Shown here piece after piece: positions 22,101-49,140 of a stretch of 64,000 bases of DNA. Every line of letters begins with the position of its first letter. Position 1 is the stretch's first letter. The position numbers and the translations under genes were made by a program. A model generated the notes under the pieces. The model had not been told where the DNA came from and ran no database searches. It saw nothing but the letters and a program-made list of their open reading frames with translations. Origin of the DNA: Candidatus Methanomethylophilaceae archaeon (GTDB taxonomy: Archaea; Thermoplasmatota; Thermoplasmata; Methanomassiliicoccales; Methanomethylophilaceae); assembly GCA_045596945.1 (NCBI GenBank), contig JAZODL010000199.1, positions 1,143 to 65,142 on the forward strand, given 5' to 3'.

Positions 22101-22895
22101 CACGTGTTCCGCGAGGCGGGGGAGCACACATTCGACATCCCCGCCGGCAACCGCCTAATAGCCTACCTCGTGGGAGGAGGCGGCAGCGGGGGGATGTGGT
22201 ACTCCGGCAAGTTCGCGGAAGCTCCTGCGGGAGGCGCCGGCGGAGCGGGCGAGTACGCCGTGTTCGGTTCCACCGTGGTGTCCGGCACATCAGGGAGGGT
22301 CGTGGTAGGGAAGGGCGGACCGTCCGTGAAGGCATGGAGCATCGACGACGGGAGCGACTACACGAAGGCCGTCTCCAAGAAGGGCAACCCCGGAGGGGCG
22401 ACCAAGCTGTACGTGGACGGAATCCATATAGGCACCGCCAACGGAGGTTCCGGGGGCGGGGTCGGGATATACGACGAGGATACCCACGACCCCCTGGTAT
22501 CGGAGGTCAAAGGGGGCTCGGGATACGGCCCCGGGGGCCCCTCGTCCAGGTTCGGCAAGGGAGGGGACGGCACGGCCGCATCCCCCAACCCCGCGAAGAA
22601 CGCGGGGAAGGGGAAGTGGAGTCAGACCGTGGAGTCCAGGGATGTGGAGATGAGGTACTGGGGAGGCCCCGGAGGGGGCGCATCCGCTCTGGACCAGGTG
22701 TTCGAGGGCATCCGCTACACCTCGTACGGAGGGGACGGAGGGGATTCGACCATTGAGCCCGGCGTAGGCGTGCTGGGAGGAGGCGGCGGGTCGGGTCCCG
22801 TGCACCTGGTACCCACCAGTGGCACGGTGTACCCCGCGGCGGACAGCGGGAGAGGGGGCGACGGGTTCGCCCTGATAGCGGTATTCAACTGGTGA
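19125..22895 (+). CDS. multidomain tail protein: Ig-like repeats, InlB-B/Listeria-Bacteroides repeats, Dit-like domain, Gly-rich C-terminus
   Basis: Start MASVSTSD; VTFDPNGG...LPSAYREGYRLSAW...LTAMW repeat; LVGGGGSGG...GGAGGAG. Confidence 0.65.
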   Translation: MASVSTSDVYVEAGESFSEEMFSADFTINTKSVSGPAWISNKYNGSNSGIIISGTPTTAGTYSVSARITDIWGNYSDTTTAYIYVSESSSGGDDGGGSGGDSGGDSGGDSGGDSGGDDSGTTVVGYFSTDGTVNSKVSSITMSVGASKTVYYSAYLNITSFTFTSSNTSVVSVTKTTSGTIYKRILTLKATGSGTAYISAPNGDRLQVTVEKEDTGGSAPSFAVASITMQVDEEVSTYINLNGNDIGLLSLYCDPESLVQIKQGDESDTRWDFSLVGLKTGTGTMHVENTDTGESDTMTVYVETTGGAGESDGPISLSGPTTVLPDTWYTFRATGGNEATITWTSNPDVADISGDGRTAEIMFPSSSSVQSVEIYVYDDVGSAPASLTVIVVPLVEYYGATEKTVSVGKNLNTYIRYKPASVVAKYATPYVTGANHCSVTVTEVASGYVDFTLRGLTEGTDTLVFSAPYGDSTHTVTVHVVPPGEVTITSYESPMYSGETQTIRAESSTWTVDTWLVTEKTDVTVIQESDNLSCDVTATLSSTTVEEGEFTIRASLDTGEYDEVTIAVRRAPYRLRLSGPVSAITGERVTVTATLTGGTGSTVAPSVRWSLEGDDTTKISETSSTVTFTRSTAGSVLVYAIDDTGAESSLSIGFTKAKAKKQTVTFDPNGGVAELRSKEVFKGETVLLPSAYREGYRLSAWTPSSSTVSLSRSSPVYAAGYRYEVTESITLTAMWAPVSQSEVDSDCYIHVMHDDVDRIMHMGVVEAISDTVTSSLISIPTMVFGVENRFLCDLGNVRRFNITLVRVAPPHHDDSSSDDRMWSNGKWIRELKSILDFWQNFGQDPRTGEVVGGFRFRFRPPSDAAELYPEIDKNVFLTGAITYSSDRDVQKLRYTLPLTVACMRAGYKGDPDITVTYSPNGVEGSSFSQKVSSSTRAIISNPDSTWADGNPLRMFKGWAITPSGGVRYTPGESLTFSSDTELYAVWDSPLAIHVFREAGEHTFDIPAGNRLIAYLVGGGGSGGMWYSGKFAEAPAGGAGGAGEYAVFGSTVVSGTSGRVVVGKGGPSVKAWSIDDGSDYTKAVSKKGNPGGATKLYVDGIHIGTANGGSGGGVGIYDEDTHDPLVSEVKGGSGYGPGGPSSRFGKGGDGTAASPNPAKNAGKGKWSQTVESRDVEMRYWGGPGGGASALDQVFEGIRYTSYGGDGGDSTIEPGVGVLGGGGGSGPVHLVPTSGTVYPAADSGRGGDGFALIAVFNW
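19393..19484 (+). repeat. GGDS tetrapeptide tandem repeat linker
   Basis: GGDDGGGSGGDSGGDSGGDSGGDSGGDDSG. Confidence 0.75.
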
Positions 22896-30168: not shown

Positions 30169-31104
30169 ATGAATGCGATAACGGCATCCAAAACGACCGC
30201 TGTGGCCCTCGGAACGTACAACGAACGCAACCTCAGGCGCGACATCTCGCTCTTCATCGCCCATCTGGCCCAGAAGGGACGCAGGGAGACCACCCAGAGG
30301 ACATACAGGGAGGCCCTGAAGAGCGTCTTCAGGACCATCATCGACAGCCAGGGACGTGTGATCGACCCCAGGATGCTCGTCCCCGAGGATTTCGAGCTCC
30401 TGAGGCAGCAGATGACGGTCTGCGACAACTCCAAGAAGCTCTACCTGGTGGTCCTGGGCCGTTTCGTGGAGTTCCTGACGGGCGAGAACCCCCGTCCGAA
30501 GGCCGATATCCTCTGGAACGACGACGACAGGCGCAGGTTGTTCATCTCTCCCGAGGAGTTCAAGGTCATGATGATGGATTCCAGCCCCGAGGAACGTCTG
30601 GTGCTCGCATTGGGAGCCTACATGGGCCTCAGGAGGTCCGAGATCGCGAGGATAAGGCTCTGTGACATCGAGAACGGCCATCTCACGGTCCACGGCAAGG
30701 GTCACGGGCCTCTCGGGAAGCGTGCCAGGCTGTTCATACCCGTCCAGGTGCGCTCCGCAATGGAGGATTACGCCCGTGTGCGCTCCATGATTGTCTCCCT
30801 GTCGGGTTCGACCGACGACCACCTCCTCCTGAGGGACACCAGGACTGGCAGGGGCCGTGCTATGGACTCCGCGTGCATCGGAGCGGTCGTCTCGAGGGTG
30901 TCGAAGCGCAACGGGGTGAGGATGACGCCCCATTCCCTCCGCAGACTCTTCGCCACGAGCCTCTGGCAGGCCGGGACGGACCTGAACACCATCAGAATCA
31001 TGATGAGGCACAGCAACGTGAACACCACGTTGGGTTGCTACATCAACGTGTCGGATGTGAGCCTCGAGGATGCCAGGAGGAGGTTGGCCTCCATTCTGGA
31101 TTGA
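30169..31104 (+). CDS. tyrosine recombinase (XerC/D-like; candidate shufflon invertase and/or integrase)
   Basis: GLRRSEI (R), HGKG (K), PHSLRR (HxxR), RHSNVNTTLGCY (H...Y). Confidence 0.9.
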   Translation: MNAITASKTTAVALGTYNERNLRRDISLFIAHLAQKGRRETTQRTYREALKSVFRTIIDSQGRVIDPRMLVPEDFELLRQQMTVCDNSKKLYLVVLGRFVEFLTGENPRPKADILWNDDDRRRLFISPEEFKVMMMDSSPEERLVLALGAYMGLRRSEIARIRLCDIENGHLTVHGKGHGPLGKRARLFIPVQVRSAMEDYARVRSMIVSLSGSTDDHLLLRDTRTGRGRAMDSACIGAVVSRVSKRNGVRMTPHSLRRLFATSLWQAGTDLNTIRIMMRHSNVNTTLGCYINVSDVSLEDARRRLASILD

Positions 31105-32254: not shown

Positions 32255-32263
32255 AACAGGAGG

Positions 32264-32769
32264 TAAAGGCAATTAACAGTGCAGGTGGTTTGAAATGGGA
32301 GACGCTATGGACAGGTTCATCAACATCAATCAGTTTGTCATCAAGCTTCCTTGCAGATTTGATGTCAAGAGATTTATGTAGAATCACCTTAGACGGATCG
32401 CACTCTAAGACCACAGGGTACGAATATTATGATTTTTACAATATTCAGGTATTATGTAGCTTTTCAGCAATAAAACCGACTACTGTAGAATATGAAGCAT
32501 CATCTTCAACATCTTCAACCACACGTGGAATCTCTATCTCATGGCAGATTGGATGTTATAATTATTTCTACAGACAAAACTCATATACCAACTCGTATAC
32601 TGGGGTGATTTATGGTTTTTGGGCAAAGGAATCTTCTACTTCGACTGGTGCGGTTGCTCCCATCGGTACATTACCCAATACTTTACAGTCGATTTCTGGA
32701 GAATCGTGGTCGCAATCAACGACCTCAGGTTTGAAAATTATAAAGATAGAGGGGCTTGTTAAAAATTAA
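32264..32769 (+). CDS. silent tail-fibre C-terminal cassette K1 (site class AAGGCA)
   Basis: Begins TAAAGGCAATTAAC (KAIN) with no proper start codon; AT-rich, S/T/Y-rich. Confidence 0.7.
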
Positions 32770-32790: not shown

Positions 32791-33204
32791 ATCCACTGTA
32801 TGAGATGCATATCCCGTTTTTGATTGTTATAGGGTAATAATCGGGATTCCCCATATGGGATAAATTAAAGGAGGATATACCCCCACTATCGCCCCAACTG
32901 TTTGTGAAATAAAATGTGAACATAGGGTATGTATTGGAATAGAGAGTTCTGATTCCTCCATAGAAAGGACCGATGCTAGATGAACCGTTTTCACTACGCC
33001 TCCCACTGCATACGAAATACGAGGATGTGAGTTTTTTAAGATGGAGTCCGTACCAATAATAATATGTTGACGATCCATGCTTCATAATAATCTCTTCTGC
33101 CAGGATTTCATCTCCAGTGGACATTTCATCAAACATTGTGACCATTTGGTCAAATGAAGAGATGGTGTGGATTTTTATTGAACTTCCATCATTAATTGCC
33201 TTTA
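32786..33204 (-). CDS. silent tail-fibre C-terminal cassette K2 (site class AAGGCA)
   Basis: Minus-strand TAAAGGCAATTAAT at 33191-33204 reads KAINDGSS in frame with ORF 32786..33145. Confidence 0.7.
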
Positions 33205-33266
33205 GCGGATTCCGTCCTTAATCTAGGTGTAATCCCCATTAAATCCGTGTACATGCATGTTGTACC

Positions 33267-36143
33267 ATGGCAACCACTGTCAAACGCATATTCAACCTAT
33301 CCACGAGGACGTTGAAGGCCCCTTCTGGCAAGTGCTATGTCGGTCAGGTCTACGACCACATCAGCACGACGCTCGAGTTCACATACGACCCCATAAACGC
33401 CCTCTCGGACGGCTACGTCCCCTACATCGTGTTCAATCTCTACGACGATGCGGGCAACCTGTTCGTCTACGGACCCGGCTCGGCCCCCGTCTTCGACGGG
33501 TACACCTTCGAGATACCCACTGCGGTCACCTCCCGTATCAGGGGGGCCCGTCTGGATTACCAGGTCTGGCTCATCAGGAACAGATTGGAGTGGGACGGGC
33601 GCATAGAGACCCTCGGCGACACCGAGTACCTGTTCTCAGCCATGGACTCCCTCGCGTTCAAGGACGGACTCAGGTGCAGGCAGCCCTCCCGCAACCCCTG
33701 CGCCCCTCCCCAGCCCTGTCTGGAGCCCGGCACCCTCGGATGGGTCAACTACCTCCGCGACCACTGCGTCCTAACCCCCGTGCAGGAGTTCTACGGGGCC
33801 CTCTCGGACGGAGTCAGGGGGGTGTCCCTCCTCTTCCCCACGTACAACGAGTCCAAGGACTGCGTCGTGGAGCTCAGGGTACCCTATCTGGATTCATCGG
33901 GCAGGGTGGACATCAACACCCATCTGCCGATGATCTCCACGTGGGAGGAGGCGGCCGACACGAACCTCGTGGACGCCCTGATGCTCAGGGAGGCCCTGGA
34001 ATCCAAGTTGGACGACACCCAGGTCATCCACAGTTGGGACGATCTCGACCCCTACAGACCCGATTCTGAGACCCAGATAACCTCCGCGATCCTCTCCAAG
34101 CTGACATTCGACACCAAGACGGACAAGACCATGTCCGTGGCCCTCTACGACCCCGTGGCGGTCTACAACAGGGGCTCCGTAGTCGTCTGGACCGACGGTC
34201 CGTACGCCCCCGACATGTACATCTGCATGGCGGACGGAGTGACCGGCACCGCCCCCGACGACACCTCCGTCTGGTCCTGCGTCTCGGAGCAGAACATGAT
34301 CCTGGACGGGTGGGACTCCGCTCCCTGGGAGAGGTACGGGGACAACCCCGCCATCACCGTGTCCGCAGGCACCATCAGACGCAACCCCGTGCCGTTCTGG
34401 GCACCTGAGATCGAGTACCCCAAGGGGGCCGTCGTCGTGGAGAGGGACACCAACACGCTGTTCATCTCCATGGACTCCCGCAACAGGGGGAACAGCCCCT
34501 ACAGGCAGGATGAGCCCTCCGCACGCATCGTCAACCAGGAGTGGTGGACCCCCGTGAGGGGGGCGGGCGGTACCGATGAGCAGGACTTCACCACCAGGCA
34601 CGACCACCTCAACATCACCACGTACAGGTTCGATCTCGGATGCTGGGTCATCAGCCACACGTTCAACACGTACAACGTGTTCGTGCAGGTCAGACGCAAC
34701 GTCACCGGGGACTCGGAGACGGGGGCCGTCACCGACCGCACCCTCGTGGACGCCCGCATCGAGCCCATCGGACTGAACGAGGTCGCCATCAGACTCGATT
34801 CCCAGTTCCACGACCCGGAGCACGAGGGGTTCACCACCGTACCGCTCATCGCGTACGTGTCCCCCGGAGGAGGTCGCGATGCGGGGAAGACGGGCGTGGA
34901 GGGCTTCCAGCTCACCAGGGAGAAGGGCGAGCCCAACGGGTACGCGGGACTGGACCCGACCGGGAGGGTGCCCGCGGCCCAGCTCCCCATGATGACCTCA
35001 TGGGGTCAGGCATCCATGGACAGCATAGCCCCCGCGGTCATGGTGAGGACGGCCGTGGACCACAACACCAGGCTCATCTCGGAGCGCACGGAGAAGGTGG
35101 ATTTCGGACGCTGGAGCGCAGACTCCAGGTACGCAGAGGGCTCCGTGGTGACCCATGCGGGACGCATGTACATCGCGACCAGGTACAACACGGCCGTGGA
35201 CCCCTCCGGCTCCGCGGACGGGACGTGGACGCCCATCGCCACCGCATCCCCCGAGGAAAGCGTGTCCAGGTACGTCCTGAACACCTCCGTCGACGGTACG
35301 GAGCTCGTCGTGGAGCACAACCTGGGCACCAGGAACCTCGTGTTCTCGGTCAGGGCCCTGGCGGACGACAGGTTCCTCAGGGACTACGATGTGTACGCCC
35401 CCTCCGACGACACCGCCAGGTTCGTGTTCCCCTCCGCACCTGGTATGGTGGCGGTCAGCCTGCTCTCCTGTCCCGCTCCCCCCATGGGCTCCGTGGAGGA
35501 GATCGTCTACAAGGGGGTGAATCCCTGGGTGTACGAGAACACCACGGGTGCGCCCGTGTTCGTGCAGTCCATCATGGCGTCAGGGGATCTTGGGTTCGCC
35601 GTGGTCGACCAGGACCCTGCATCCGGGTACGACCCCGTGACGGTCAGGGTAATGTCCTCGGCCCCCGACGGCACCCTCGTGGCCGGCAGGGCGGACTACG
35701 TCAGGAGGTTCACCAGGGACGACCTGGAGGTGGAGCCCTCCACGGGCGAGTACGTCCTGCACATCACCAAGACGGACATCGCCTCCGACCTCGCATGGTA
35801 CGCGGTGCAGGTGTATCTGGACGGCAGCGGACAGGCCCTCGCCAACGTGAAGCAGAACGGCTCCGAGGTGACGGTCGGCATATCCTCGAAGACCATCGAG
35901 AACACCCCCGACATCGCGGGAGCGGTCATCCTGAAGAGGGCGACCCAGGCGGTGACGTTCGAGATGGGACAGATAGAGGACGGCACCCTCACCCTGGACA
36001 TCCCCGAGGGGAGGACGGTCGCAGGGGTCCAGCTGTTCGTCGGTGCCGAGGGGGACATGATGATGTCCGACATCAAGTGCATCGACGGGAAGGTCACGGC
36101 GAGGTTCTCCGAGCCCGATTACGGTACCGTGGTCCTCGTCTGA
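33267..36143 (+). CDS. tail/baseplate protein with carbohydrate-binding-like repeats
   Basis: W....Y..GS.V repeats (CBM5/12-like), KGEPNGYAGLDPTGRVPAAQLP, VEHNLGT. Confidence 0.6.
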   Translation: MATTVKRIFNLSTRTLKAPSGKCYVGQVYDHISTTLEFTYDPINALSDGYVPYIVFNLYDDAGNLFVYGPGSAPVFDGYTFEIPTAVTSRIRGARLDYQVWLIRNRLEWDGRIETLGDTEYLFSAMDSLAFKDGLRCRQPSRNPCAPPQPCLEPGTLGWVNYLRDHCVLTPVQEFYGALSDGVRGVSLLFPTYNESKDCVVELRVPYLDSSGRVDINTHLPMISTWEEAADTNLVDALMLREALESKLDDTQVIHSWDDLDPYRPDSETQITSAILSKLTFDTKTDKTMSVALYDPVAVYNRGSVVVWTDGPYAPDMYICMADGVTGTAPDDTSVWSCVSEQNMILDGWDSAPWERYGDNPAITVSAGTIRRNPVPFWAPEIEYPKGAVVVERDTNTLFISMDSRNRGNSPYRQDEPSARIVNQEWWTPVRGAGGTDEQDFTTRHDHLNITTYRFDLGCWVISHTFNTYNVFVQVRRNVTGDSETGAVTDRTLVDARIEPIGLNEVAIRLDSQFHDPEHEGFTTVPLIAYVSPGGGRDAGKTGVEGFQLTREKGEPNGYAGLDPTGRVPAAQLPMMTSWGQASMDSIAPAVMVRTAVDHNTRLISERTEKVDFGRWSADSRYAEGSVVTHAGRMYIATRYNTAVDPSGSADGTWTPIATASPEESVSRYVLNTSVDGTELVVEHNLGTRNLVFSVRALADDRFLRDYDVYAPSDDTARFVFPSAPGMVAVSLLSCPAPPMGSVEEIVYKGVNPWVYENTTGAPVFVQSIMASGDLGFAVVDQDPASGYDPVTVRVMSSAPDGTLVAGRADYVRRFTRDDLEVEPSTGEYVLHITKTDIASDLAWYAVQVYLDGSGQALANVKQNGSEVTVGISSKTIENTPDIAGAVILKRATQAVTFEMGQIEDGTLTLDIPEGRTVAGVQLFVGAEGDMMMSDIKCIDGKVTARFSEPDYGTVVLV

Positions 36144-36233
36144 GCCTGTAGGGGGCGAAAGCCCCTTCAAACCCCTTATGAAAAAATAAGCCGGAATCTT
36201 TCGTTAACTCATTCTTGGTAAAGGTTCCTTCCA

Positions 36234-36544
36234 TAAAGGCAATTAACGAGAGCGGTTCGGGAACAACAGTCTCAACCAGTTACAAGTTCAGCTATTTCGC
36301 ATCAGGAGGATCTATAGGAGACATCTGGGCCTACTACTCAGAAGGTAGCGGAACTAGATACAATCTGATAGTAATCAAGACTGCATCGAATGAATTCGCT
36401 TCAACAGGATATTGGAATAAAGCAATACCTTATTCTCTATCAGATAGCACTTTGTATTACAGAGATTTGTATACATCCTCGACTTCTGGACAGGGTAGCA
36501 CGGATATCAGTTCATATTATGGAATTTGGATTCATTTCGGATGA
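36234..36544 (+). CDS. silent tail-fibre C-terminal cassette K3 (site class AAGGCA)
   Basis: TAAAGGCAATTAAC at 36234-36247 reads KAINESGS; AT-rich. Confidence 0.7.
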
Positions 36545-36576: not shown

Positions 36577-37262
36577 TCAACTAAGGGCGATTGAGGAAAT
36601 TGAGGATATGAACAACTTCATGTATCCTTGAGTTGTCGATGAATTATACTTATCCATGTCTATGCTGCAATGGTGCATGTATTTGTAATTGGAATTTGTT
36701 GAAGTGATTTTGATGTCGTCCACGATACCGTTGGACCAAGAGAAGGCTAATTTTATCGTTGTACGTCCACTGTTATTGGTTACATATTTTGATGGATTCG
36801 GGAATGAGAGGTTACAGGTGTATTCTTCAAAATCGCTATGGTATGAGTAATATTCTGTGCAATTGACAACCATTGTGAAACTAATCGTACCAGGATAGTC
36901 GCTGGAAATCACCTGTTCGAGGTAATCCTTCAGAACCGATTTGAAAGGGTCGATGACAGTCCACGTTTTCAGATTGACCATGCTACTGAAATTGTAATAA
37001 ACCAAGAATATGGAGGGAGTTGTACTAGGATTAGTCATGGAGTCGAATGAATATGCAGGATAAGAGGAAATCACTGGTTTGGTGGTAGCAGAACTGTTGT
37101 ATGTTGATTTAGACAGAGTGCCCTTGGATGAGATGCCGCAGGAATATGATGAATATGCTCCAATATAACCATCAGAGGGGGTTGTCACAAGTTTCGCCTC
37201 ATCGGAAATTGTCAGAGTATAGGAGTCGTTGCTGGAATCCAATGCGATATTAATTGCCTTTA
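36577..37262 (-). CDS. silent tail-fibre C-terminal cassette K4 (site class AAGGCA)
   Basis: Minus-strand TAAAGGCAATTAAT at 37249-37262 reads KAINIALDSS in frame. Confidence 0.7.
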
Positions 37263-37284
37263 ACGTTACCCGCTTCGCTCTGTC

Positions 37285-38085
37285 TTTAGTGCGATTAACA
37301 GCAAGATGGACAACATGACCGTGGACAGCGCACCCGCCCCCGGATCCAGCAATCTCGTGACCAGCGGAGGCGTGTATACTGCGATTAACGATAAGTCCGT
37401 GTCAGACGTGGCCATGGCCGTCGACGCAGACAACAACCTAAGCGTGACGGTCAAACAGGCTGATGGAACGAGTAAGAGCGGAAGCGTGGCATTGCCTGGA
37501 GGAGAGATTGAGATTAAGAACTACGGTGAAGTAGGAGCTACCAACAAACTCACGATAACACTTACCAGTTCCGAGAGTGTATCGACAAGTTCGACTAGCA
37601 ATAGAACGTGGTATCTGTTTGAGGCAGAGGACTCCTATTTGTCGGAGGGACTGTATTATGACCCTGATTCAAACACTATCAAGAAATGTGGTCTGAAAAC
37701 CATAAAACAGACTCAATCAGGTACGCTTGCAACAAGCCTATACAATTCAAATGTAAGTAGGTTGTTATCATACTTCCAAAATGCACTGGTCGGAAAGCGT
37801 CTTACAAGTGAGAACTCCAACAATATAACGACCAGTCATACCATATATTATAAGGTTGATTCCAAATCAATCATACTGGAAGTGAGCTGCACCTACGGTT
37901 CCAATGAAAATTATGACAGGATTACGGCTGTAAGCTCGGTCAAGGCGTATTCAACATCATATAATAATACGTTAAGCGGGACCTTAAATCTCACAAGGGT
38001 GTCCAACAGCACAACCAGTATTTACCACCAGTGTGACGAATACAACGAGATACCATCAACCTATGTCAAGATCGCAGACCTTTAA
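37285..38085 (+). CDS. silent cassette S1 (site AGTGCG) containing an internal second-tier site (ACTGCG)
   Basis: TTTAGTGCGATTAAC 37285-37299 (FSAIN); GTGTATACTGCGATTAAC 37372-37389 (VYTAIN). Confidence 0.72.
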   Translation, partial: FSAINSKMDNMTVDSAPAPGSSNLVTSGGVYTAINDKSVSDVAMAVDADNNLSVTVKQADGTSKSGSVALPGGEIEIKNYGEVGATNKLTITLTSSESVSTSSTSNRTWYLFEAEDSYLSEGLYYDPDSNTIKKCGLKTIKQTQSGTLATSLYNSNVSRLLSYFQNALVGKRLTSENSNNITTSHTIYYKVDSKSIILEVSCTYGSNENYDRITAVSSVKAYSTSYNNTLSGTLNLTRVSNSTTSIYHQCDEYNEIPSTYVKIADL

Positions 38086-38250
38086 GGGGTCATCGACCCC
38101 ATCAAACCTCTTACAATACAAAGTTCAGATCAGAACATCGGTACAAATGGAATTATCGTCGATGACTGTGAAATGATATGCCATTATTTCACCGATAGAA
38201 TGGTGGTGAAATGGATATAAAAAGAGTATCCCCCGAAGGGGTAAGGTGTT

Positions 38251-38772
38251 TCACTGTTTCAAGCGGTACATCTTGTATATATAGGTCGGTATATCAGCAG
38301 TTTTGATGACTGATTCTCCTAACGACTTACTATAAGAACCGTTGAACAATTGTAGGAAATAAGCAAATGGATTCCCAGAGTTCATCATGCTAGCCTGTTT
38401 AACTCCGTACTTGCATAAACTTACATAGGCATCGTTTGCAATATAACAGAACGAACCATAACTTGTGGCATCAGATTGCACCTCAAATTCCATAAAGTTG
38501 GTAGCACGTATAGTAGACATCGTTATTCCTGATATTGAACTTGTCCAACTCGATATACTGCTTGAAGGTATACCGATAAGTTTGAACGATACCTTCACCC
38601 TGTCCCCTGTGACCCAGTCAGTCGGGAAGTTCGTCAGGTCAACCTCCTCCCAGACCTCTCCGCCACCAGCATCCTGCCAGCTTCCAGCCCCAGCCCCGTC
38701 ACTTGTCCAGACCTGTCCAGCCTGTCCAGCACTTGTCGGGCTGTACTGCGTGGCTTCGTTAATCGCAGTAAA
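38251..38772 (-). CDS. silent cassette T2 (site class ACTGCG)
   Basis: Minus-strand TTTACTGCGATTAAC at 38758-38772 reads FTAINEATQY...AGQAGQVWTSDGAG (tail-fibre-like). Confidence 0.72.
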   Translation of the reverse strand, partial: FTAINEATQYSPTSAGQAGQVWTSDGAGAGSWQDAGGGEVWEEVDLTNFPTDWVTGDRVKVSFKLIGIPSSSISSWTSSISGITMSTIRATNFMEFEVQSDATSYGSFCYIANDAYVSLCKYGVKQASMMNSGNPFAYFLQLFNGSYSKSLGESVIKTADIPTYIYKMYRLKQ

Positions 38773-38810
38773 TGTCGCGGAATCATGAAAAAAAATAAAG
38801 GGAAGGGGTT

Positions 38811-39248
38811 TCAGAACTCGGGTTCGGCGGGCCAGATGGGGATGTTGTTCGGGTACCCTACGGCATCTCTGGTCGCCCTGACCGCCAGCTTGTACGCGTC
38901 GATGGCCTTGAGGGTCGCCTCGTTGGCCTCCACGTCCACTCCGTTCCTGATGTTCCTCTGTGCGGACTGCTCCGCACCGTCCAGACGCTCGTACCTGATG
39001 GCCCTGAACATGGTCTGGAGCCCGTCGTCCCACCTGTCATCGGGGATGGTGAGTGCAAGGGCCTTCGCCTGGTCGTATTCCGTGGGTGTGAGGAGGACCT
39101 CGGTGTACTCCCACCCTTTAGTGGTGCGGTCGTCATCCTGTTCCTCGAAGGGGGTGATGGATCCCCTGACGTACACGGTCCTCCCGTTGACCTCCACATT
39201 GGAGGGTCTGACATCCTGTGTTCCCCTTACTCTTCCGTTGAATCTCAT
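38811..39248 (-). CDS. putative tail-fibre assembly chaperone
   Basis: C-terminal AYKLAVR...GYPNNIPIWPAEP resembles Tfa-like proteins; coupled to the RT stop. Confidence 0.5.
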   Translation of the reverse strand: MRFNGRVRGTQDVRPSNVEVNGRTVYVRGSITPFEEQDDDRTTKGWEYTEVLLTPTEYDQAKALALTIPDDRWDDGLQTMFRAIRYERLDGAEQSAQRNIRNGVDVEANEATLKAIDAYKLAVRATRDAVGYPNNIPIWPAEPEF

Positions 39249-40297
39249 ATCGTTTCAACTCCTATAGCCATGGCCCTGTCGACCCTCCCGAGGTACTTGT
39301 CCGCGAGTTTCCGATCGGAGCACCAGCTGAGCATGCCCTCGTATGATATCAGGCTTTTAAACATCTTCGGACGGATGACCTCCCTCCTGCGGATGGCCCT
39401 CAGTATGCGGTTGCATGCCCTGATGAAGGAGACCTTGGTACGTTTGCGGATCATGGTCTGCTTGTGGTCGGACACGTATCCCATGAAATCCAGTCTGCGC
39501 TTCACCACCGGGAACACAGCGTAGTTCCCCTTCATCCTCAGACCGATCCCGTGGATGTACTGTCTGATGTACCTGATGTACGCCCGGAGCTTGGCCTTGG
39601 AGTTGCTGAGGAGGGCGATGTCGTCCATGTACCGATAGTAGTACGGCGCATGCAGGGTCTCCTTCACATAATGGTCCAATCCGCTCAGGAAGAACACGCT
39701 CAGGACCTGGCTGGAGAACAGACCTATCGGCAATCCGCGTTTGCCGGGGCACTGGAATATGATGCGGTGTAAGAGGTCCAGTGTACGACGGCATTTGAGT
39801 CGTGAACGGAGCATGTCGAACAGTATGTGCCTGTCCACGGAGTCGAAGAAGTGGTATATGTCCAGCTTGGCGCAGTAGCGGGTGCCACGGGGGTCGCACT
39901 GGAGGTCCATGGCGACCTGTTTGGCCCCCCTGTGGAGACCACGCCCCTTCACACCGGCGAACGAGGTCTCCCCGACCTCCCTGTGGAGGATGGGTCCGAC
40001 AACGTTGAACACTGCGTGCTGGATCACCCTGTCGGGATACGTGCGGGTGTAGCACAGCTTCCTGTCCTTCCCGCGTTCCCTGATGGTACGGTGCCTGAAC
40101 CGACCGTAGTGGAACGATTCGCTCGTCAATATGTCTTTGATGCCCCGGACGTAGGGATCAGGGTCGGCCTTCATTGCCTGTACCGCAGGGTCGCGGTGAT
40201 GGTCCTTGCAGGCCTCCTTTATCGCGAGTCGGATGTTGTCCTCGTCGCATATACAATCATACAGTTTCCTTCCATCGATGTTTCCAACCCTCTTCAT
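39245..40297 (-). CDS. DGR reverse transcriptase
   Basis: MKRVGN...NIRLA, DRVIQHA, KLDIYHFFDSV, GLPIGLFSSQ, YYRYMDD, LDFMGY; adjacent TR. Confidence 0.95.
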   Translation of the reverse strand: MKRVGNIDGRKLYDCICDEDNIRLAIKEACKDHHRDPAVQAMKADPDPYVRGIKDILTSESFHYGRFRHRTIRERGKDRKLCYTRTYPDRVIQHAVFNVVGPILHREVGETSFAGVKGRGLHRGAKQVAMDLQCDPRGTRYCAKLDIYHFFDSVDRHILFDMLRSRLKCRRTLDLLHRIIFQCPGKRGLPIGLFSSQVLSVFFLSGLDHYVKETLHAPYYYRYMDDIALLSNSKAKLRAYIRYIRQYIHGIGLRMKGNYAVFPVVKRRLDFMGYVSDHKQTMIRKRTKVSFIRACNRILRAIRRREVIRPKMFKSLISYEGMLSWCSDRKLADKYLGRVDRAMAIGVETI

Positions 40298-40437
40298 AGG
40301 TATCCTCTCCTATGTTGTTCATCCGCTTTCCATCGGCCCTGAGGCTGTACTGACGGGTGTAGGTGAAGTCGTGTTTTGCCGAGAGGCAGGGTTGTCCCGG
40401 TCCTTCTCCTCCCCAAAGGGGATGGAGCGTGAGGAAA

Positions 40438-40593
40438 TAGGAAAGGCGGGAGCCGATGTTCGAGTTCGAGTTGGTCGAATTGTAGTTGACATTGCAATAG
40501 AACAGTCCAGCATTGTCTGTGTTGTTGTAATTGCCACCAACATTCGGGAAATTCGCATTCGACGAGTTGTAGTTCACATTGCCATTGTCGGCG
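40438..40593 (-). ncRNA. DGR template repeat (TR)
   Basis: 156-bp AAC-rich copy of the target 3' end; core mismatches all at TR adenines. Confidence 0.92.
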
Positions 40594-40705
40594 CGAAGAC
40601 TAGACCCACGGCTCCGACACGGGACAACCATGCATGGTCCATGGAGGAGGGTGTATAAAGGGTTTGGTGCGCCTGCCGGCGCCATGGTTCGCCGGAGAGG
40701 CCCCC

Positions 40706-40718
40706 GGGGCTTCGCCCC
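40706..40718 (-). other. GC hairpin downstream of VR/IMH
   Basis: Minus strand GGGGC-GAA-GCCCC about 30 bp after the target stop codon. Confidence 0.5.
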
Positions 40719-40750
40719 TTATGGGGAAAGGGTTTGCAGGGGCTCCGGGC

Positions 40751-43700
40751 TCACGCCCTTCCGCCCCTGTAGGAGAGGCGGGAGCCGACGTACGAGCTCG
40801 AGTTGGTCGAAGTGTAGAGGACACTGCAACAGAACAGTCCAGCATTGCCTGCGTCGTCGTAAATGCCACCAACACGCGGGAAATACGCAACCGACGAGTA
40901 GTAGCCCACACTGCCATAGTCGGCGAAGTACGTGGTCGCCGAACCTCCGGACTGGCTGGTGGAACAGAACCCTCCCTTGTTGGTTCCCGAGACGGTCTTG
41001 ATGTATCCGCCGGAGTTGGAGCCGGTCAGACCCGTGTCGGTTCCCAAAGACGCCTGCTTCGCATAGTTGCTGGTGGAGTTCCAGGAGCTGTTGTCGAATG
41101 CCCTGGAGTTGGCCTGTCTGGGGAGCCAGTAATACAGCTTCGACGATGAGCCGGCACGGTTCCATGCCCCTCCGATGAACTGGTAGATGTTGCCCCAGAT
41201 GTCGTGTATCCAGAAGAACGCGTTGCGTGCCGAGCTCTTGGAACCGGCCATACCGTATGCGGTGGTGCTCAGTCCTCCGTTTCCGAGACTGGTCCCGTCT
41301 TCATCGGCATATCCATAGGAGTGTGCGACCTGCGTGTTGGTGGATCTGTACAGGAGGACGAACAGTGCCTGGAGGTACGTCCACTGCTGGAAGCTCATAC
41401 AGTCGTAATCCGTTCCACGTGCGTTCGCGGCCACGAAATACTGGTTGTATGCGGTCGACACCAACGCACTTGAGGACACCTTGGAGTATATCCCCGAAGT
41501 CGAACCCGATGCCTGGAAGCAACCGATGTGGAAAGAGTTGGCGAAATACGAGTTATCGTTGGATGCCATGATGGTCGACCTGTTGACGGACGACATGGCG
41601 GACTCTATCTGGTCGTTGGAGTACGAGTCACAACCCTTGGCGTGCGCATAGCACTGGAATGTGGAGTCAGGCTGTTCGTCCTTGTCGGAGAAGATGATAC
41701 GTATCTTGGAACCGTCGTTGGTTATGGAGAGCCACTGGAACGGGAACTCTGTGAACATGTCCGCATTCGAGGAGACGGGGCCCCACGTGCCGGCGTCCGT
41801 ATCCAGATCCGTCCAGCTGGAACCGTTCTTGACGACGGGCTTTATCCCCTCCAGGATCTTGTGGGATCTCTCCGACCAGGAACCCATGCTGAAAGTGGAT
41901 GCTCCCGAAGCGGGCGTGTATCCGGAACAGGAATTCGCCACGGAGGCCCCGTTGACCGTGATGGTCGCAGGGTACGTGCACCTGTCCTCACAGTCGGATG
42001 TGCTGATTGCGATGTCCACCGCTGCGAACCCGTAACCGAACGTGATGGCCATGGTCACGGTGTACTCCTGGTCGTTCGCGATGATCAGGGTCTGCGGGTT
42101 GCATGATCCGCCTGTGGGCACGTTCGTCATGGTGAAGGTCACGCTCCCCGTCGTGGAGAACACATGGGAGGTCCCTCCCGAGGAATCCGATGTCAGAGAA
42201 GCCGACTCCGCCCCTGTGACGGCGATGGTTCTCCCGCTCTGGTACCCGCTGTTGGATGCATCCGTGACGACCACGTTGACGACAGGTTTCCTGACGAGGG
42301 TGAACGTGATGTTGGTCACGAGTCCCGCGGCTGCCGTGGTTATGGTCTGGCTCTCCACCGCATAATAGCCCTCGGGGACATCGCATCCCACAGTGTACTG
42401 GGAGGTGGCGTTGAGCGTCATCGTCACGGAACCTCCCGAGCCGATCGTCGCGGTCGTGTCCGCGGAACCCTCGGCAGGTGTCGCGGTGATGACCCTTCCG
42501 GTGATGTTCCCCGTGGCGGAGGTAACGTTGATGGTGAGGTACGACTTGGCCGTGCTCACCTCGCCCTCGAGGTTCTCGACCTTTCCCTCCAAGGTGGAGA
42601 GGGATTGGTTGATCGTGTTAATCGCACTATACACAGCCTTGTTCTGCACGGGGTTGGTGCTGGTGCTGGAGAGTGCGCTGTCGACGGTGACCGCCGCGGG
42701 GACCTCGCTCCTGAGCGCGTAGTCGCCGGTGGGTTGCTTCCCGTTGAGCTGGGACTGGATGGAGGATGTGACCCCGCTGACGTAGCCGAGCTCTGCCGAG
42801 GTGACGCCCGAGACGGCGACCTTCCCGTTCCCATCGGAGACGAGCGCCCTGCTGGCCGTGAGGTTGTTACCGGTGATGGATGTGGCCGCTCCCGTGATGG
42901 TGGCCTGCTTGCCGTTCACGACGCCCTGGAGGGTGTCGAGCTCGGTTCCCGTGGCATAGTCGCCGGTGGGCTGGTACTTGGTGAGCTCGTCGGCGAGTCC
43001 CGTGGTCGTGACGTATGATGAGTCGTTGGAGAGCTCGCTGACCTTGGTGGGGACGGTTATGTCCACGGCCTTGCTCCCGTCGACGGTCAGCGCGGAGCCG
43101 TTCCTCTTGATGGTCTCGATGACGTTGGTCTGTGCGCCCGCGGCGATTCCCGTGAGCTTGGACTTCTCCGCATCGGTGTAGTTGTTGTCGGAGAGGACCT
43201 TGTCGCCGTCCCTGTCCACCTTGCCGTTCTCCAGGCCATCGATGGCCGCTTTGACGACCTTGTTCTGCACGGGGTTGACGGATGTGGTGGAGAGGGCGGA
43301 GTCGACGGTGATGCTGACCGCGGTGGTGCCGATTTTCTCCCATGCGTTGTTGATCCAGAGGTACTCCGCCTTGATGTCGGAGTCCGCGGTGTTCCCGGCG
43401 GGGACGAGGTACAGGGTGTTCGCCACTCCCGTCGTGGGGAGGGCGTCCGCAATCTCTATGTTGAACTGCCTGAGGGCGTTTATCTGGTTCTGGAGGGAGG
43501 CCTGTGCATTGCCGATGGTGGTGTTGAGCGCGGCGACCTCGTTGGAGAGCTCGCCCTTGGTCGCGGCCGCCGCGACGCCCTCCACCAGGTCGGAGATGTC
43601 CGCCTGGACGGTGTCCATCTCGCCCTCCAGGGTGGTGGCCCGTCCCTCGAGGGAGGTTGCCCTGTTCTGGAGTGCGGCATCGGCGGAGTCGAGCTCGCCC

Positions 43701-44083
43701 ACCTTGGTGTCGTAGTCGCTCTGGGCGACCTTCTTGGTGATGGCAGTCGCCAGCTCCGCATCCTTGGTGTCGAGGGCGGATTTGATGGTCGCAACATGCG
43801 TGCTCACGGCCCCTCCGGACACGGGGCTGGTGCTCCCCGCATTCACGGAGCTGTCGATGACCAGGTTCCCACTGTACTCGGTCCATGTGGATCCGTTGGA
43901 CACGTAGAACCTGCCCTTGGTGTATTCGCCGGTGGTAGTTCCCGCATAGAGCACGACGCAACCGTTGTTGACCGCGTTCGCGACAGGCAGGGAGCTGAAA
44001 GTACCCAGGAGGTTCCCCTGGGCGGAGGAGTGGATCCTTCCTCCCACGGAGATGCTGGCGTAGTGTGTGTAATCATCTGCCAT
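40751..44083 (-). CDS. tail fibre/receptor-binding protein; shufflon expression locus and DGR target (C-type-lectin/FGE-like C-terminus)
   Basis: VDSALS.TS.NPVQNK fibre repeats, coiled coil, VYSAIN site at 42617-42634, IHDIWGNIYQF...VGSRL; likely start MADDYTH. Confidence 0.85.
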   Translation of the reverse strand: MADDYTHYASISVGGRIHSSAQGNLLGTFSSLPVANAVNNGCVVLYAGTTTGEYTKGRFYVSNGSTWTEYSGNLVIDSSVNAGSTSPVSGGAVSTHVATIKSALDTKDAELATAITKKVAQSDYDTKVGELDSADAALQNRATSLEGRATTLEGEMDTVQADISDLVEGVAAAATKGELSNEVAALNTTIGNAQASLQNQINALRQFNIEIADALPTTGVANTLYLVPAGNTADSDIKAEYLWINNAWEKIGTTAVSITVDSALSTTSVNPVQNKVVKAAIDGLENGKVDRDGDKVLSDNNYTDAEKSKLTGIAAGAQTNVIETIKRNGSALTVDGSKAVDITVPTKVSELSNDSSYVTTTGLADELTKYQPTGDYATGTELDTLQGVVNGKQATITGAATSITGNNLTASRALVSDGNGKVAVSGVTSAELGYVSGVTSSIQSQLNGKQPTGDYALRSEVPAAVTVDSALSSTSTNPVQNKAVYSAINTINQSLSTLEGKVENLEGEVSTAKSYLTINVTSATGNITGRVITATPAEGSADTTATIGSGGSVTMTLNATSQYTVGCDVPEGYYAVESQTITTAAAGLVTNITFTLVRKPVVNVVVTDASNSGYQSGRTIAVTGAESASLTSDSSGGTSHVFSTTGSVTFTMTNVPTGGSCNPQTLIIANDQEYTVTMAITFGYGFAAVDIAISTSDCEDRCTYPATITVNGASVANSCSGYTPASGASTFSMGSWSERSHKILEGIKPVVKNGSSWTDLDTDAGTWGPVSSNADMFTEFPFQWLSITNDGSKIRIIFSDKDEQPDSTFQCYAHAKGCDSYSNDQIESAMSSVNRSTIMASNDNSYFANSFHIGCFQASGSTSGIYSKVSSSALVSTAYNQYFVAANARGTDYDCMSFQQWTYLQALFVLLYRSTNTQVAHSYGYADEDGTSLGNGGLSTTAYGMAGSKSSARNAFFWIHDIWGNIYQFIGGAWNRAGSSSKLYYWLPRQANSRAFDNSSWNSTSNYAKQASLGTDTGLTGSNSGGYIKTVSGTNKGGFCSTSQSGGSATTYFADYGSVGYYSSVAYFPRVGGIYDDAGNAGLFCCSVLYTSTNSSSYVGSRLSYRGGRA
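40770..40925 (-). repeat. DGR variable repeat (VR)
   Basis: Aligns ungapped to TR 40438-40593. Confidence 0.92.
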
Positions 44084-44103
44084 AGGATGGGCATCGTCAG
44101 CAC

Positions 44104-44116
44104 GCAATATAAACCG
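44104..44116 (-). promoter_or_regulatory. TATA-like box of the fibre gene, inside an invertible segment
   Basis: Minus strand CGGTTTATATTGC about 25 bp upstream of the ATG at 44083. Confidence 0.45.
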
Positions 44117-44139
44117 TTCCCTGGAGCCCTCGGCCTGCG

Positions 44140-45252
44140 TTTAGTGCGATTAACAGCAAGCAGGACACCCTCCCCGCGACCGGGTCCTCCACGGTACCCG
44201 TCTACGTGTCCGCAACGGGCACCGTCACCGCATGCTCCCTCGGAGCGGCCGCGACCAAGGGCGTATCGACATCCGTCACCTCCGGCGACGCGAACCTCGT
44301 CACAGGAGACGCTGTGTATAAGGCAATTAACACATTGGATGCATCTGTAGATGGACAGGATTTCACAATCACTTTAAATGGTAAATCAACTACTGTGACA
44401 CTCCCTCGAAAGACAGGTACCGCACTCAGAGTCGTATTGACCACTGATGGAGATGCGAGTGCTATCAGTGGAGTGTTGGTTACAGTATCTAATTCATCAT
44501 ACTCGTACACAGGAACTTCAGATTCCTCGGGAGTAGCGGTTGTACAGGTGGAACAACCTGGAACATATACTGTATCTGCTACGGCCCCCAGATATTATAC
44601 TGCAACATCACCCAGTGTAGATCTTACCTCGGAATCCTCGATTGCCCTCAGTGTAAATACATACAGTTTGACTTGTAGATGGAAATCGGGAGGATTATCC
44701 ACTTCAACTAAGACGATTGTGGAAGACGGTAGTCCATCATCATCTAGGTTCTACGTAAACACAGATACTTATGATGATTATGGAACAACAGTAACTACAG
44801 ATGGTGTGCCTATATACAAAATCAAGGCGTATGGTAATAATTCATATTCTACATACGGTAATTCAGAAGTTCCCAGTTATTCGTATCTTCACAGGATCTC
44901 ATCTTGGAATAGCACGAATGTGCTTACGGACTTACAATATTGGAAATTCACATCCACTTTTTCAGGAAGATGCAGATTTCAAGTAGATATTGAATATTGG
45001 AATTATGGTGAGGGGTCTTCATACGGAGGCATATACAGGAATAGTTCATTTACCATTACATTCGATGCAAATATTACAAAAAATTCAGATTCTTATGGAA
45101 TGGCTCTAACAGATATAGAGATTGTATCTATTCCTTCTACTGTATCTTTTTATTCAGATTCTCACCGTACCGATTATTTCTCATATGATATCGGTGAGAT
45201 CCGCTGTACTGCGATTTCTATCGACTATGATACATTACCAGATCCAAGTTAA
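44140..45252 (+). CDS. silent cassette S2 (site AGTGCG) containing an internal second-tier site (AAGGCA)
   Basis: TTTAGTGCGATTAAC 44140-44154 (FSAIN), open frame through GTGTATAAGGCAATTAAC 44314-44331 (VYKAIN); becomes AT-rich right after the second site. Confidence 0.75.
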   Translation, partial: FSAINSKQDTLPATGSSTVPVYVSATGTVTACSLGAAATKGVSTSVTSGDANLVTGDAVYKAINTLDASVDGQDFTITLNGKSTTVTLPRKTGTALRVVLTTDGDASAISGVLVTVSNSSYSYTGTSDSSGVAVVQVEQPGTYTVSATAPRYYTATSPSVDLTSESSIALSVNTYSLTCRWKSGGLSTSTKTIVEDGSPSSSRFYVNTDTYDDYGTTVTTDGVPIYKIKAYGNNSYSTYGNSEVPSYSYLHRISSWNSTNVLTDLQYWKFTSTFSGRCRFQVDIEYWNYGEGSSYGGIYRNSSFTITFDANITKNSDSYGMALTDIEIVSIPSTVSFYSDSHRTDYFSYDIGEIRCTAISIDYDTLPDPS

Positions 45253-47838: not shown

Positions 47839-49140
47839 ATGAAATTCTCTATGTCGAACAAATCTATGCTGGCGGCAGCCATCATGCTCGTCGCTGCATT
47901 CGCGGGGATCACCGTCTTCGACGGTGAGGACGTGGATGCGGCGAACGCGGCCGTCTCCCTTGACGGGGAGTTCGACCTCGCGGGCGTGAAATGGACCAAC
48001 GCCGGCCTCGGCAACAACCTCTCGATTGCCGACGGTAAAATCACCGGAACCGTCGCGAAGGCGGACGCCTCGAAGATCCAGGCCCTCTGGGGAACGGGCG
48101 CAACCGAGAAACATGTCGTCATCCTGACCTTCACCATCCAGCCTGGACAGTACCTCGTCTGGGAGGCATCCGACAACTCCGGCGTCAAGACGGCCAAAGC
48201 AGAGTCCGATGGTAAAATCGTCATGGGACTCCGTCTCGCAGAGAGCACTAAGGACTTCGTCTACGCGGTCAGCTCTGTGAACGTCGCCGACAAGGCGGTC
48301 TATGACGCACTCATCAAGGAGAAGGTCGAGTTCGATGTCGAGCTCCTCGGAGACGCTGTCAACATCTACTACACTGTCGGAGACCTCACCTACATCCAGC
48401 GCTCCATTGCCAAACAGACCTACACCCTCGTCTCCATGGACGACCTCAGGGCCGTCGCACCCGAGGGATACGAGTTCGCAGGCTGGGCATGGACCAACAA
48501 CGTCCTTGACGCAGGCGCCATCCTCACCCTCGCAGAGGGCGAGGAGGACGGATACTATACGTTCACCGCCACTTTCAGGGAGATTCCCGTCCAGGAGGTC
48601 TTCAAAGTCGAGTTCGTCGTCGACGGCATCGTCGTCCAGACCTGCCAGTCCGACAACGTCGTCGTTCCTGCGGATCCCTCTAAGATCGGGTTCAAGTTCA
48701 CCGCATGGACTGTCGAGGGAGTCATGGCAAACCCCGCCAACTACGCATACACCGAGGATGTCAAATTCACCGCCGCGTTCGAGGCATACACCTACAGGGT
48801 TACCTTCGTCGCAGGCGGGGATGTCGTGGGCACTCCCCAGACCGTTAAGCACGGCGACCTCATCCTCGCACCCGCACTCCCCTCGGGATACGAGTCCTGG
48901 AACTTCGACTTCGCCAAGGCCATCACCGAGGACACCGTCATCGTCGCAGTCGAGGCCCCCGAGCCCGAGCCCACCGGCGCAGACGACCCCAAGACCCTCA
49001 TGGTCTACATCATCGTGGTCATCGTGATCGCCCTGCTCGTCGCCTGTGTTATCTACCTCATCAGAGAGGGCAAGATCGTCGTCGGACTCGGAAAGAAGAA
49101 GGAGATCGAGGCGCCCGCAAAGGAGGAGCCCAAACAGTGA
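47839..49140 (+). CDS. secreted, membrane-anchored surface protein with InlB-B-like repeats
   Basis: Signal peptide ending DVDAA, PEGYEFAGW / DPSKIGFKFTAW repeats, C-terminal transmembrane helix. Confidence 0.75.
   Translation: MKFSMSNKSMLAAAIMLVAAFAGITVFDGEDVDAANAAVSLDGEFDLAGVKWTNAGLGNNLSIADGKITGTVAKADASKIQALWGTGATEKHVVILTFTIQPGQYLVWEASDNSGVKTAKAESDGKIVMGLRLAESTKDFVYAVSSVNVADKAVYDALIKEKVEFDVELLGDAVNIYYTVGDLTYIQRSIAKQTYTLVSMDDLRAVAPEGYEFAGWAWTNNVLDAGAILTLAEGEEDGYYTFTATFREIPVQEVFKVEFVVDGIVVQTCQSDNVVVPADPSKIGFKFTAWTVEGVMANPANYAYTEDVKFTAAFEAYTYRVTFVAGGDVVGTPQTVKHGDLILAPALPSGYESWNFDFAKAITEDTVIVAVEAPEPEPTGADDPKTLMVYIIVVIVIALLVACVIYLIREGKIVVGLGKKKEIEAPAKEEPKQ

Follow-up and report, generated by a model that had tools for sequence, protein, structure and literature searches.

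Diversity-generating retroelements (DGRs) and shufflons are treated as alternative routes to diversity in receptor-binding proteins, and the tail-fibre locus described here raises the question of whether both can act on one gene. The window, by which we mean the whole 64-kb stretch of DNA analysed, comes from a 79-kb contig (G000:C199), the greater part of which it covers, in an assembly of 1.44 Mb; a first-pass annotation had read its fibre gene as a single protein diversified by coarse domain swapping and by adenine mutagenesis, the DGR being one branch of a shufflon. That combination is supported, in that the acceptor site within the gene has recombined in a near-identical relative and the same joint is found in a second virus (G264), so that both mechanisms occur on one gene in at least two viruses. 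The earlier picture of a shufflon coupled to a DGR holds, but it overlooked that the recombination sites fall into three spacer classes and that short adaptor modules connect them. We put at roughly 78% the probability of a tail-fibre shufflon with eight in-frame tips, one of them a complete DGR branch, flipping within a spacer class by means of a nearby recombinase, with adaptors that change the class.

Recombination sites, spacer classes and adaptors

Ten 18-bp sites (consensus YRWWA-N6-TTAAYR) lie within 12 kb, six on the plus and four on the minus strand, each an imperfect palindrome around a 6-bp spacer. The strict site occurs ten times in the whole 1.44-Mb assembly, always between 32.2 and 44.4 kb of the window, and a free-spacer scan of the contig (WWA-N6-TTAAYR) returns just these ten sites. 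The core GCRATTAA has ten copies in the window, all in the same interval and all read in frame as A-I-N, with seven in the other 1.36 Mb; the 12-mer at no more than one mismatch gives five matches, where 50 shuffles gave a mean of 0.06. Chance does not account for the cluster.

The spacers are AGGCAA (five sites), GTGCGA (three) and CTGCGA (two), and across the ten sites they are unscrambled, AG being always paired with A, and GT or CT always with G. Each class has exactly one copy with a coding left arm (TGTATA after the stalk repeat), at 42616 (GTGCGA), 37373 (CTGCGA) and 44315 (AGGCAA), and the donor spacers equal an acceptor spacer despite the differing left arms of the donors. The primary acceptor (42616..42633, minus strand, GTGCGA) lies inside the fibre gene, where it is read as Y-S-A-I-N, and its inverted partner is at 37283..37300 on the plus strand; both sites had been recognised in the first-pass annotation, with ends off by one or two bases. 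A second same-spacer partner lies upstream of the promoter (44138..44155, plus strand). Each of these two GTGCGA donors opens an in-frame module, closed by the second or the third acceptor-type site, all on the plus strand: adaptor 1 (37291..37380), a 30-amino-acid stalk repeat, runs from its GTGCGA site to the CTGCGA site at 37373..37390, and adaptor 2 (44146..44322), a 59-amino-acid stalk module, runs to the AGGCAA site at 44315..44332. The interval 37283-42633, previously taken as the DGR branch, does bound the parts of the retroelement, but an adaptor, two more tips and two nested sites fall within it as well, and the DGR branch in the strict sense covers 38775-42615.

Joining the 486-amino-acid constant part of the fibre to any of the sites gives an open frame, with branches of 101-624 amino acids. 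The second-tier acceptor-type sites precede tips at 37381-38085 (234 amino acids) and 44323-45252 (309 amino acids). The CTGCGA donor (38757..38774, minus strand) precedes a tip of 171 amino acids (38766-38251) and forms the left border of the DGR branch. The AGGCAA donors are at 32261..32278 (plus strand; tip 32269-32769, 166 amino acids), 33190..33207 (minus; tip 33199-32786, 137 amino acids), 36231..36248 (plus; tip 36239-36544, 101 amino acids) and 37248..37265 (minus; tip 37257-36577, 226 amino acids). BLASTP shows no relationship among the seven fixed tips, which are A+T-rich, with a G+C content of 0.38-0.46 versus 0.64 in the constant part. A constant 5' part followed by several in-frame 3' cassettes, with sites in both orientations, is the arrangement of a shufflon. 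The single common crossover core of a shufflon is not present, there being three spacer classes here and two in G264; the system operates as a shufflon would, in a tiered form.

Tyrosine recombinases require identical spacers for strand exchange. The available text of one study of phage inversion systems mentions 7-8 bp of homology for tyrosine recombination (PMC6109161). When simulated inversions were restricted to sites with the same spacer, all eight tips were reached in three flips or fewer (512 states).

An inversion in a near-identical relative

Relatives of the virus were compared as assembled contigs, not reads, from four of 13 listed runs. The gut metagenome X1 has contigs about 99% identical to the window over the constant genes, and in one of these position 42630 is joined to 44142 on opposite strands at 14 shared bases, with 190 letters on the shorter side. 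This joint is the product of inverting the promoter and the constant half between two GTGCGA sites (42616 × 44138): the stalk is fused to the module at 44146, the long frame is restored, and the sequence 3' of 42616 is left without a start. It is the constant half that moves, while the DGR stays in place but headless. Inversion at the sites is accordingly an observation, made in one contig whose depth is like that of its neighbours, and the possibility raised alongside the first-pass annotation, that the site at 42617 never recombines, does not hold. The flip seen is 42616 × 44138; an inversion between 37283 and 42633, as originally envisaged, is predicted.

The unflipped joint is found on another X1 piece (43743-44176) with only 21 letters beyond the core, and both states may coexist in X1. 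In the same run, two cassettes that stand tail to tail in the window are head to head, one of them having a different tip with an AGGCAA spacer. An X1 contig that departs from the window at 36237, in the spacer at 36231-36248, continues with 29 unmatched letters. Nothing in X1 covers 39204-42311, a hole in contigs that carries no evidence. In runs X2 and X4 the RT-TR region (reverse transcriptase and template repeat, see below) matches at about 97%, and the tip is fused across the site to a diverged constant part.

These observations point to the following scheme. In the assembled state the 486-amino-acid constant stalk is fused to the DGR tip. The flip 42616 × 44138 reverses the promoter and constant half and fuses them to adaptor 2, giving the joint seen in the relative, and the flip 42616 × 37283 would fuse the constant half to adaptor 1. 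If identical spacers are required, the first tier would be a choice between the DGR tip, adaptor 1 and adaptor 2, and flips of the second tier would settle on one of five AGGCAA tips or of two CTGCGA tips. Both the restriction to a class and the identity of the enzyme are inferred.

A complete retroelement at the fibre tip

The fibre gene, which is the DGR target, is read on the minus strand from an ATG at 44083 to 40751 (1110 amino acids). Its constant N-terminal part (42626..44083, 486 amino acids), with a TTTATA box at 44108-44113, continues into the coding part of the DGR branch (40751..42625, 624 amino acids), which has no start codon close to its 5' end and comprises an Ig-like-looking stalk and a C-type-lectin tip of the FGE type. 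On the same strand lie the variable repeat (VR, 40777-40925) at the 3' end of the lectin tip, the template repeat (TR, 40445-40593) 332 nucleotides downstream of it, the DGR reverse transcriptase (RT, 39245..40297; 350 amino acids, intact, with a YMDD motif), and directly 3' of the RT a tail-fibre-assembly-chaperone-like gene (38811..39248, 145 amino acids). All the parts named in the first-pass annotation are found at the locus, and so is the minus-strand TTTATA box at 40654-40659, a predicted promoter of TR, RT and chaperone-like gene.

Over their 149 nucleotides VR and TR mismatch at 23 positions, every one of them at a TR adenine (23 of 23, with 45 adenines in TR; P about 7e-15), and none of the 26 variable codons of TR can be converted to a stop. 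The 3' ends of TR and VR diverge, and a G+C-rich inverted repeat is seen in the sequence 3' of VR. The RT matches PF00078 (E 1.6e-16) and phrog_1423 (E 5e-85). With a DGR-type RT and a TR/VR pair both present, the identification as a diversity-generating retroelement is confirmed. VR may vary between populations: in run X5 the VR end has 25 differences in 244 nucleotides versus nine in 1025 nucleotides over the six other pieces shown, the bases themselves being unlisted; in related viruses, VR differences between assemblies fall at TR adenines in 23 of 23 and 145 of 148 pairwise differences.

A structural model of the last 419 amino acids, built from 18 sequences (pLDDT 66, pTM 0.79), has as its best match the protein TaqVP (PDB 5vf4; Z 12.1, root-mean-square deviation 4.1, 258 residues aligned), followed by FGE-type lectins. 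Foldseek against the PDB also places the same TaqVP chain at the top, but at E 0.011, with no match at E ≤ 0.001. In this model VR is placed at the C-terminus of a C-type-lectin fold. The assignment of the chaperone-like gene comes from matches that are weak but concordant, to phrog_8746 (E 0.0018), to Caudo_TAP/Phage_tail_APC neighbours in the Atlas (scores 0.86-0.89) and to BFVD entries labelled tail assembly chaperone (E 0.018 or weaker); the confident model of the protein (pLDDT 95) found no match in the PDB at E ≤ 0.001 with Foldseek. A gene of this kind lies 3' of the RT in most related DGR loci examined, those with stand-alone targets included, and it may be a fixed accessory of a DGR lineage lacking Avd.

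Can the detached tip keep mutating?

The DGR branch (38775-42615) carries VR, its 3' flank, TR, RT and chaperone-like gene on one piece; as it contains no internal site, no flip separates these components from one another. Off the acceptor, the DGR tip would be without a start while VR, TR, RT and chaperone-like gene stay together, and mutagenesis probably goes on. A TTTATA box lies about 60 nucleotides before TR, and the same box is found 25 nucleotides before the fibre ATG. A sigma-70 promoter scan, of a kind unsuited to archaeal promoters, gave nothing above shuffles. Homing in phage BPP-1 is described as independent of target orientation and as working with the donor in trans (PMC3240598, in the portion available). 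Given the DGR parts on one piece, the TTTATA box and the behaviour of BPP-1, the suggestion that adenine mutagenesis could continue while the tip is silent is plausible, and we hold it somewhat likelier than its opposite. The locus is a natural setting in which to ask whether mutagenic homing depends on expression of its target, and by what means a virus keeps hypermutation affordable, with the fixed tips as a safe fallback.

The recombinase

The candidate enzyme is a tyrosine recombinase of XerD size (30169..31104, plus strand, 311 amino acids, PF00589), with no room for an arm-binding domain. Its catalytic set (R155, K177, H255, R258, H281, Y291) is complete and invariant in 30 aligned homologues. 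It is the sole PF00589 match on the 79-kb contig, and likewise the sole one in G264, and in all three viruses where it was seen (the window, L319 and L320) it lies among fibre genes. A scan with the single sequence found nothing; an alignment scan did find homologues. Judged by its sequence, the linked, armless tyrosine recombinase with intact catalytic residues that is typical of a shufflon is present, and this protein is likely to be the invertase of the sites. On another viral contig (L321) a recombinase homologue is flanked by an inverted pair of repeats of about 20 bp, at 1404 and 2805.

The design in related viruses

The alignment scan with the recombinase led to G264, a complete 84-kb virus from IMG/VR, which has exactly five cores: three with the GTGCGA spacer and two with CTGCAA, a spacer new relative to the window. 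The GTGCGA sites are an acceptor at the joint of stalk and DGR tip and two inverted donors, one of which opens a 37-amino-acid adaptor ending in CTGCAA, with one inverted CTGCAA donor; adaptor 1 of the window is homologous to this adaptor (49% over 39 amino acids). TR and VR mismatch at adenines in 22 of 23 positions, and RT, chaperone-like gene and a 57% identical recombinase are all present. Both first-tier flips would move the constant half, and all four tips were reached when simulated inversions were restricted by spacer. On these features, the tiered design of classes and adaptors recurs independently in G264.

In a third contig (G017:C259) a GTGCGA site lies at the joint of the stalk and a DGR-type tip; the joint is the same in G264 and G017 although the tip there is just 28% identical. 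G021:C203 has a donor-type GTGCGA copy (locus L312, 2445-2459) followed by only 15 codons, possibly an off state or a lost cassette. The background of the loose site pattern is about one match per five genomes, and scans of genome contigs (106 single matches) and viral contigs (2 and 99 stretches) yielded just G264 as a further case. Among 205 site-pattern loci checked, just two, both in G264, matched the fibre genes of the window; two further loci have three loose cores and no fibre homology, and a match at L340 was rejected as chance.

A different inversion switch was found on the DGR gene of another virus. In L001 and L099, two assemblies of one related virus that are 99.5% identical and stand in different states, inversions occur at a different site just upstream of start codons; depending on the state, a TATA-bearing stretch of some 200 bp faces the DGR gene or else another small gene. 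Strands are exchanged at a central TA, as is usual for serine recombinases; neither a serine nor a tyrosine recombinase was found in the L001 record (78% complete). The promoter-flip switch spans 5090-8035 in L001 and 1724-1953 in L099, with three sites, and its targets are the DGR gene or small tip-like genes.

Other associations of DGRs with recombinases were of a different kind. In the provirus-like contig G011:C37 (L174 and L175), about eleven copies of TAAACACCGTTAA (up to two mismatches) lie beside a DGR and a recombinase; they are intergenic and out of frame, were rejected as a shufflon, and are probably operators. At L178-L182, in several assemblies of the host genus (G028, G031, G008 and G005), a more distant DGR RT (34-37% identity) lies about 4 kb upstream of a recombinase homologue without a site cluster, and these loci are possibly integrated elements with DGRs.

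Weighing the alternatives

Several observations weigh against a tiered shufflon with a DGR branch. The flip was seen in a single contig of a relative (depth 2.8), assembled and not at the level of reads, and the flip at 37283 and all second-tier flips are unobserved in the contigs. The class model gives no account of the X1 contig whose match to the window ends one base inside the 36231 spacer. Between the recombinase and its nearest site there are 1.2 kb, and the acceptor is 11.5 kb away; members of the enzyme's family are common in the host order, in 50 of 61 genomes; and in G017 and G021, which carry the site, no close homologue of the enzyme turned up (best 33-35% identity, in fragmented assemblies). 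Related DGR targets mostly stand alone and start at an ATG of their own, and 27 of 30 related loci are without the site core. Among the 43 proteins scanned, in which short open reading frames are only partly covered, no homologue of Avd was detected. As to mutagenesis in the silent state, the TTTATA box at 40654-40659 abuts a terminator-like motif, and a TATA-like box before TR was recognised, by eye, in only six of ten related viral-type lineages.

One may ask whether the classes exert any control at all. Any site might recombine with any inverted site through the shared GCRATTAA core, classes and adaptors being a record of history; GTGCGA and CTGCGA differ by one base, the Rin and BV01 shufflons use one short shared repeat as far as their published descriptions were available, and the single crossover seen had a one-in-three chance of falling within its class (two of six inverted partners). 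The absence of any scrambled spacer among ten sites, the single acceptor-type copy per class in both viruses, and a new spacer in G264 that is used exactly twice, nested and inverted, make such a flat system rather improbable. The same grade applies to the view that the crossover sites are real while a host enzyme of XerA type acts on them, the viral recombinase being an integrase or dimer resolvase: the latter is the sole tyrosine recombinase on the contig and in the complete G264, so it may be needed elsewhere; the site arms resemble the inner arms of Xer/dif sites; and G017 and G021 have the site and, in their assemblies, no close recombinase homologue. Yet the recombinase lies among the fibre genes of the window, L319 and L320; the contig has no tRNA, and the surroundings of the recombinase have no att-like match in the rest of the assembly; and host genomes do not carry the site in repeated form, any match being present in 49 of 261 and more than three in G000 alone.

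The DGR could also be a mobile passenger, a cassette swapped in behind the acceptor that mutates or matters only when fused, in which case the coupling would have no added function. The module is 97-99% identical in runs X2 and X4, whose other genes diverge, the otherwise matching X1 has no cover of the DGR (a hole that proves nothing), and most relatives have a stand-alone DGR target gene. We nevertheless regard this as unlikely: the joint is kept in G264 and G017 despite the low tip identity, and the placing of a DGR gene under another inversion switch in a different virus suggests repeated selection for an optional DGR tip. A dead shufflon, with the X1 joint a chimera made in the library or during assembly, is very improbable; the contig is indeed one of low depth, but the joint falls exactly on a 14-base site, restores a long frame at a depth like that of its neighbours, and all ten branches and the recombinase are intact.

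Beyond the tiered shufflon with its DGR branch, we offer a wider interpretation tentatively and at somewhat less than even odds. The locus may be a programmable receptor search on three levels, in which the tips form a decision tree built from orthogonal spacer classes and in-frame adaptors, with a parked hypermutator as one of its leaves producing stop-free variants, so that an unselected library of lectins would be banked and switched on by one flip; methanogen viruses would have reached an optional DGR tip twice, by in-frame fusion and by promoter flip.

Virus and host setting

The window encodes a terminase and has matches to a head protein and, weakly, to a portal, and is on that account a tailed virus. 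In the assembly that contains the contig there are McrA and an MtmB with a TAG in frame, and the relatives of this assembly measure 1-3 Mb; from these three features we infer that it belongs to the order Methanomassiliicoccales. The RTs nearest to that of the window (up to 58% identity) are from the same genus as the assembly. Methane-making archaea are likely hosts of the virus, the link coming from binning and from those nearest RTs.

Between the cassette blocks lies a 958-amino-acid fibre-like structural gene (33267..36143, plus strand; weak match to the tail fibre phrog_7389), whose homologues adjoin the same genes in relatives; some inversions would carry it along. Two more adhesin-like proteins with Flg_new repeats are encoded outside the shufflon, at 18501-22895 (1464 amino acids) and 47839-49140 (433 amino acids). 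At 66.9-78.5 kb of the contig, mostly outside the window, patches of 69-96% identity to the host-binned contigs C178, C201, C254 and C273 suggest a second related element in the assembly.

Comparison with known systems

No paper found in the literature covered treats a DGR as one branch of a shufflon or reports spacer classes in a shufflon, the work of Medvedeva et al. (2023) on viruses of methanogens and its supplements lying outside that coverage; what was available of the report on MSTV1 (PMC11375127) has no passage on a DGR, adhesin, recombinase or shuffling. Spacer classes and adaptors amount to natural orthogonal recombination sites, a branching genetic switch built from 18-bp sites and relevant to recombinase logic, and the system bears on the host range of gut-methanogen viruses.

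Multi-cassette inversion of a fibre or adhesin tip is carried out by Rci of plasmid R64. It is also described, in the accessible text, for the tail-fibre shufflon of BV01-like phages (PMC13596623) and for Min, Gin and Cin (PMC6109161); unlike the present locus, all of these are bacterial, have a single site class and lack a retroelement. The Rin shufflon of Bifidobacterium prophages (Mavrich et al., 2018; PMC6109161) and of Eggerthella lenta clade 1 (PMC8778435) shares with it, as described in the parts of those papers available, a constant N-terminus with variable C-termini behind short in-frame sites, an armless tyrosine recombinase and a receptor-binding protein; in those descriptions, however, it has a single 11-bp (or 8-bp) repeat, is flat, and has no DGR branch. 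According to the available portion of the same study (PMC8778435), Rin shufflon and DGRs do not share a prophage clade in E. lenta, the former being in clade 1 and the latter in clades 2, 3, 4, 7 and 10. The phiCh1 module of the Vertoviridae (PMC8651126) likewise comes from a tailed virus of archaea, in which an invertase of the tyrosine type acts on the tail-fibre module; its host, however, is haloarchaeal, and the sections of that paper at hand make no mention of a DGR or of multi-tier cassettes.

On the side of the retroelement, mtd of BPP-1 (PMC3240598, in part) and TaqVP (PDB 5vf4) show the same TR/VR adenine mutagenesis of a C-terminal C-type-lectin domain with an RT behind TR. Their target is normally a fixed gene, whereas here it is a detachable branch, and in place of Avd (not found among the 43 proteins scanned) a chaperone-like gene follows the RT. 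With a tiered site architecture that we have not found in print, the coupling is real and replicated, and constitutes a new variant made from two known systems.

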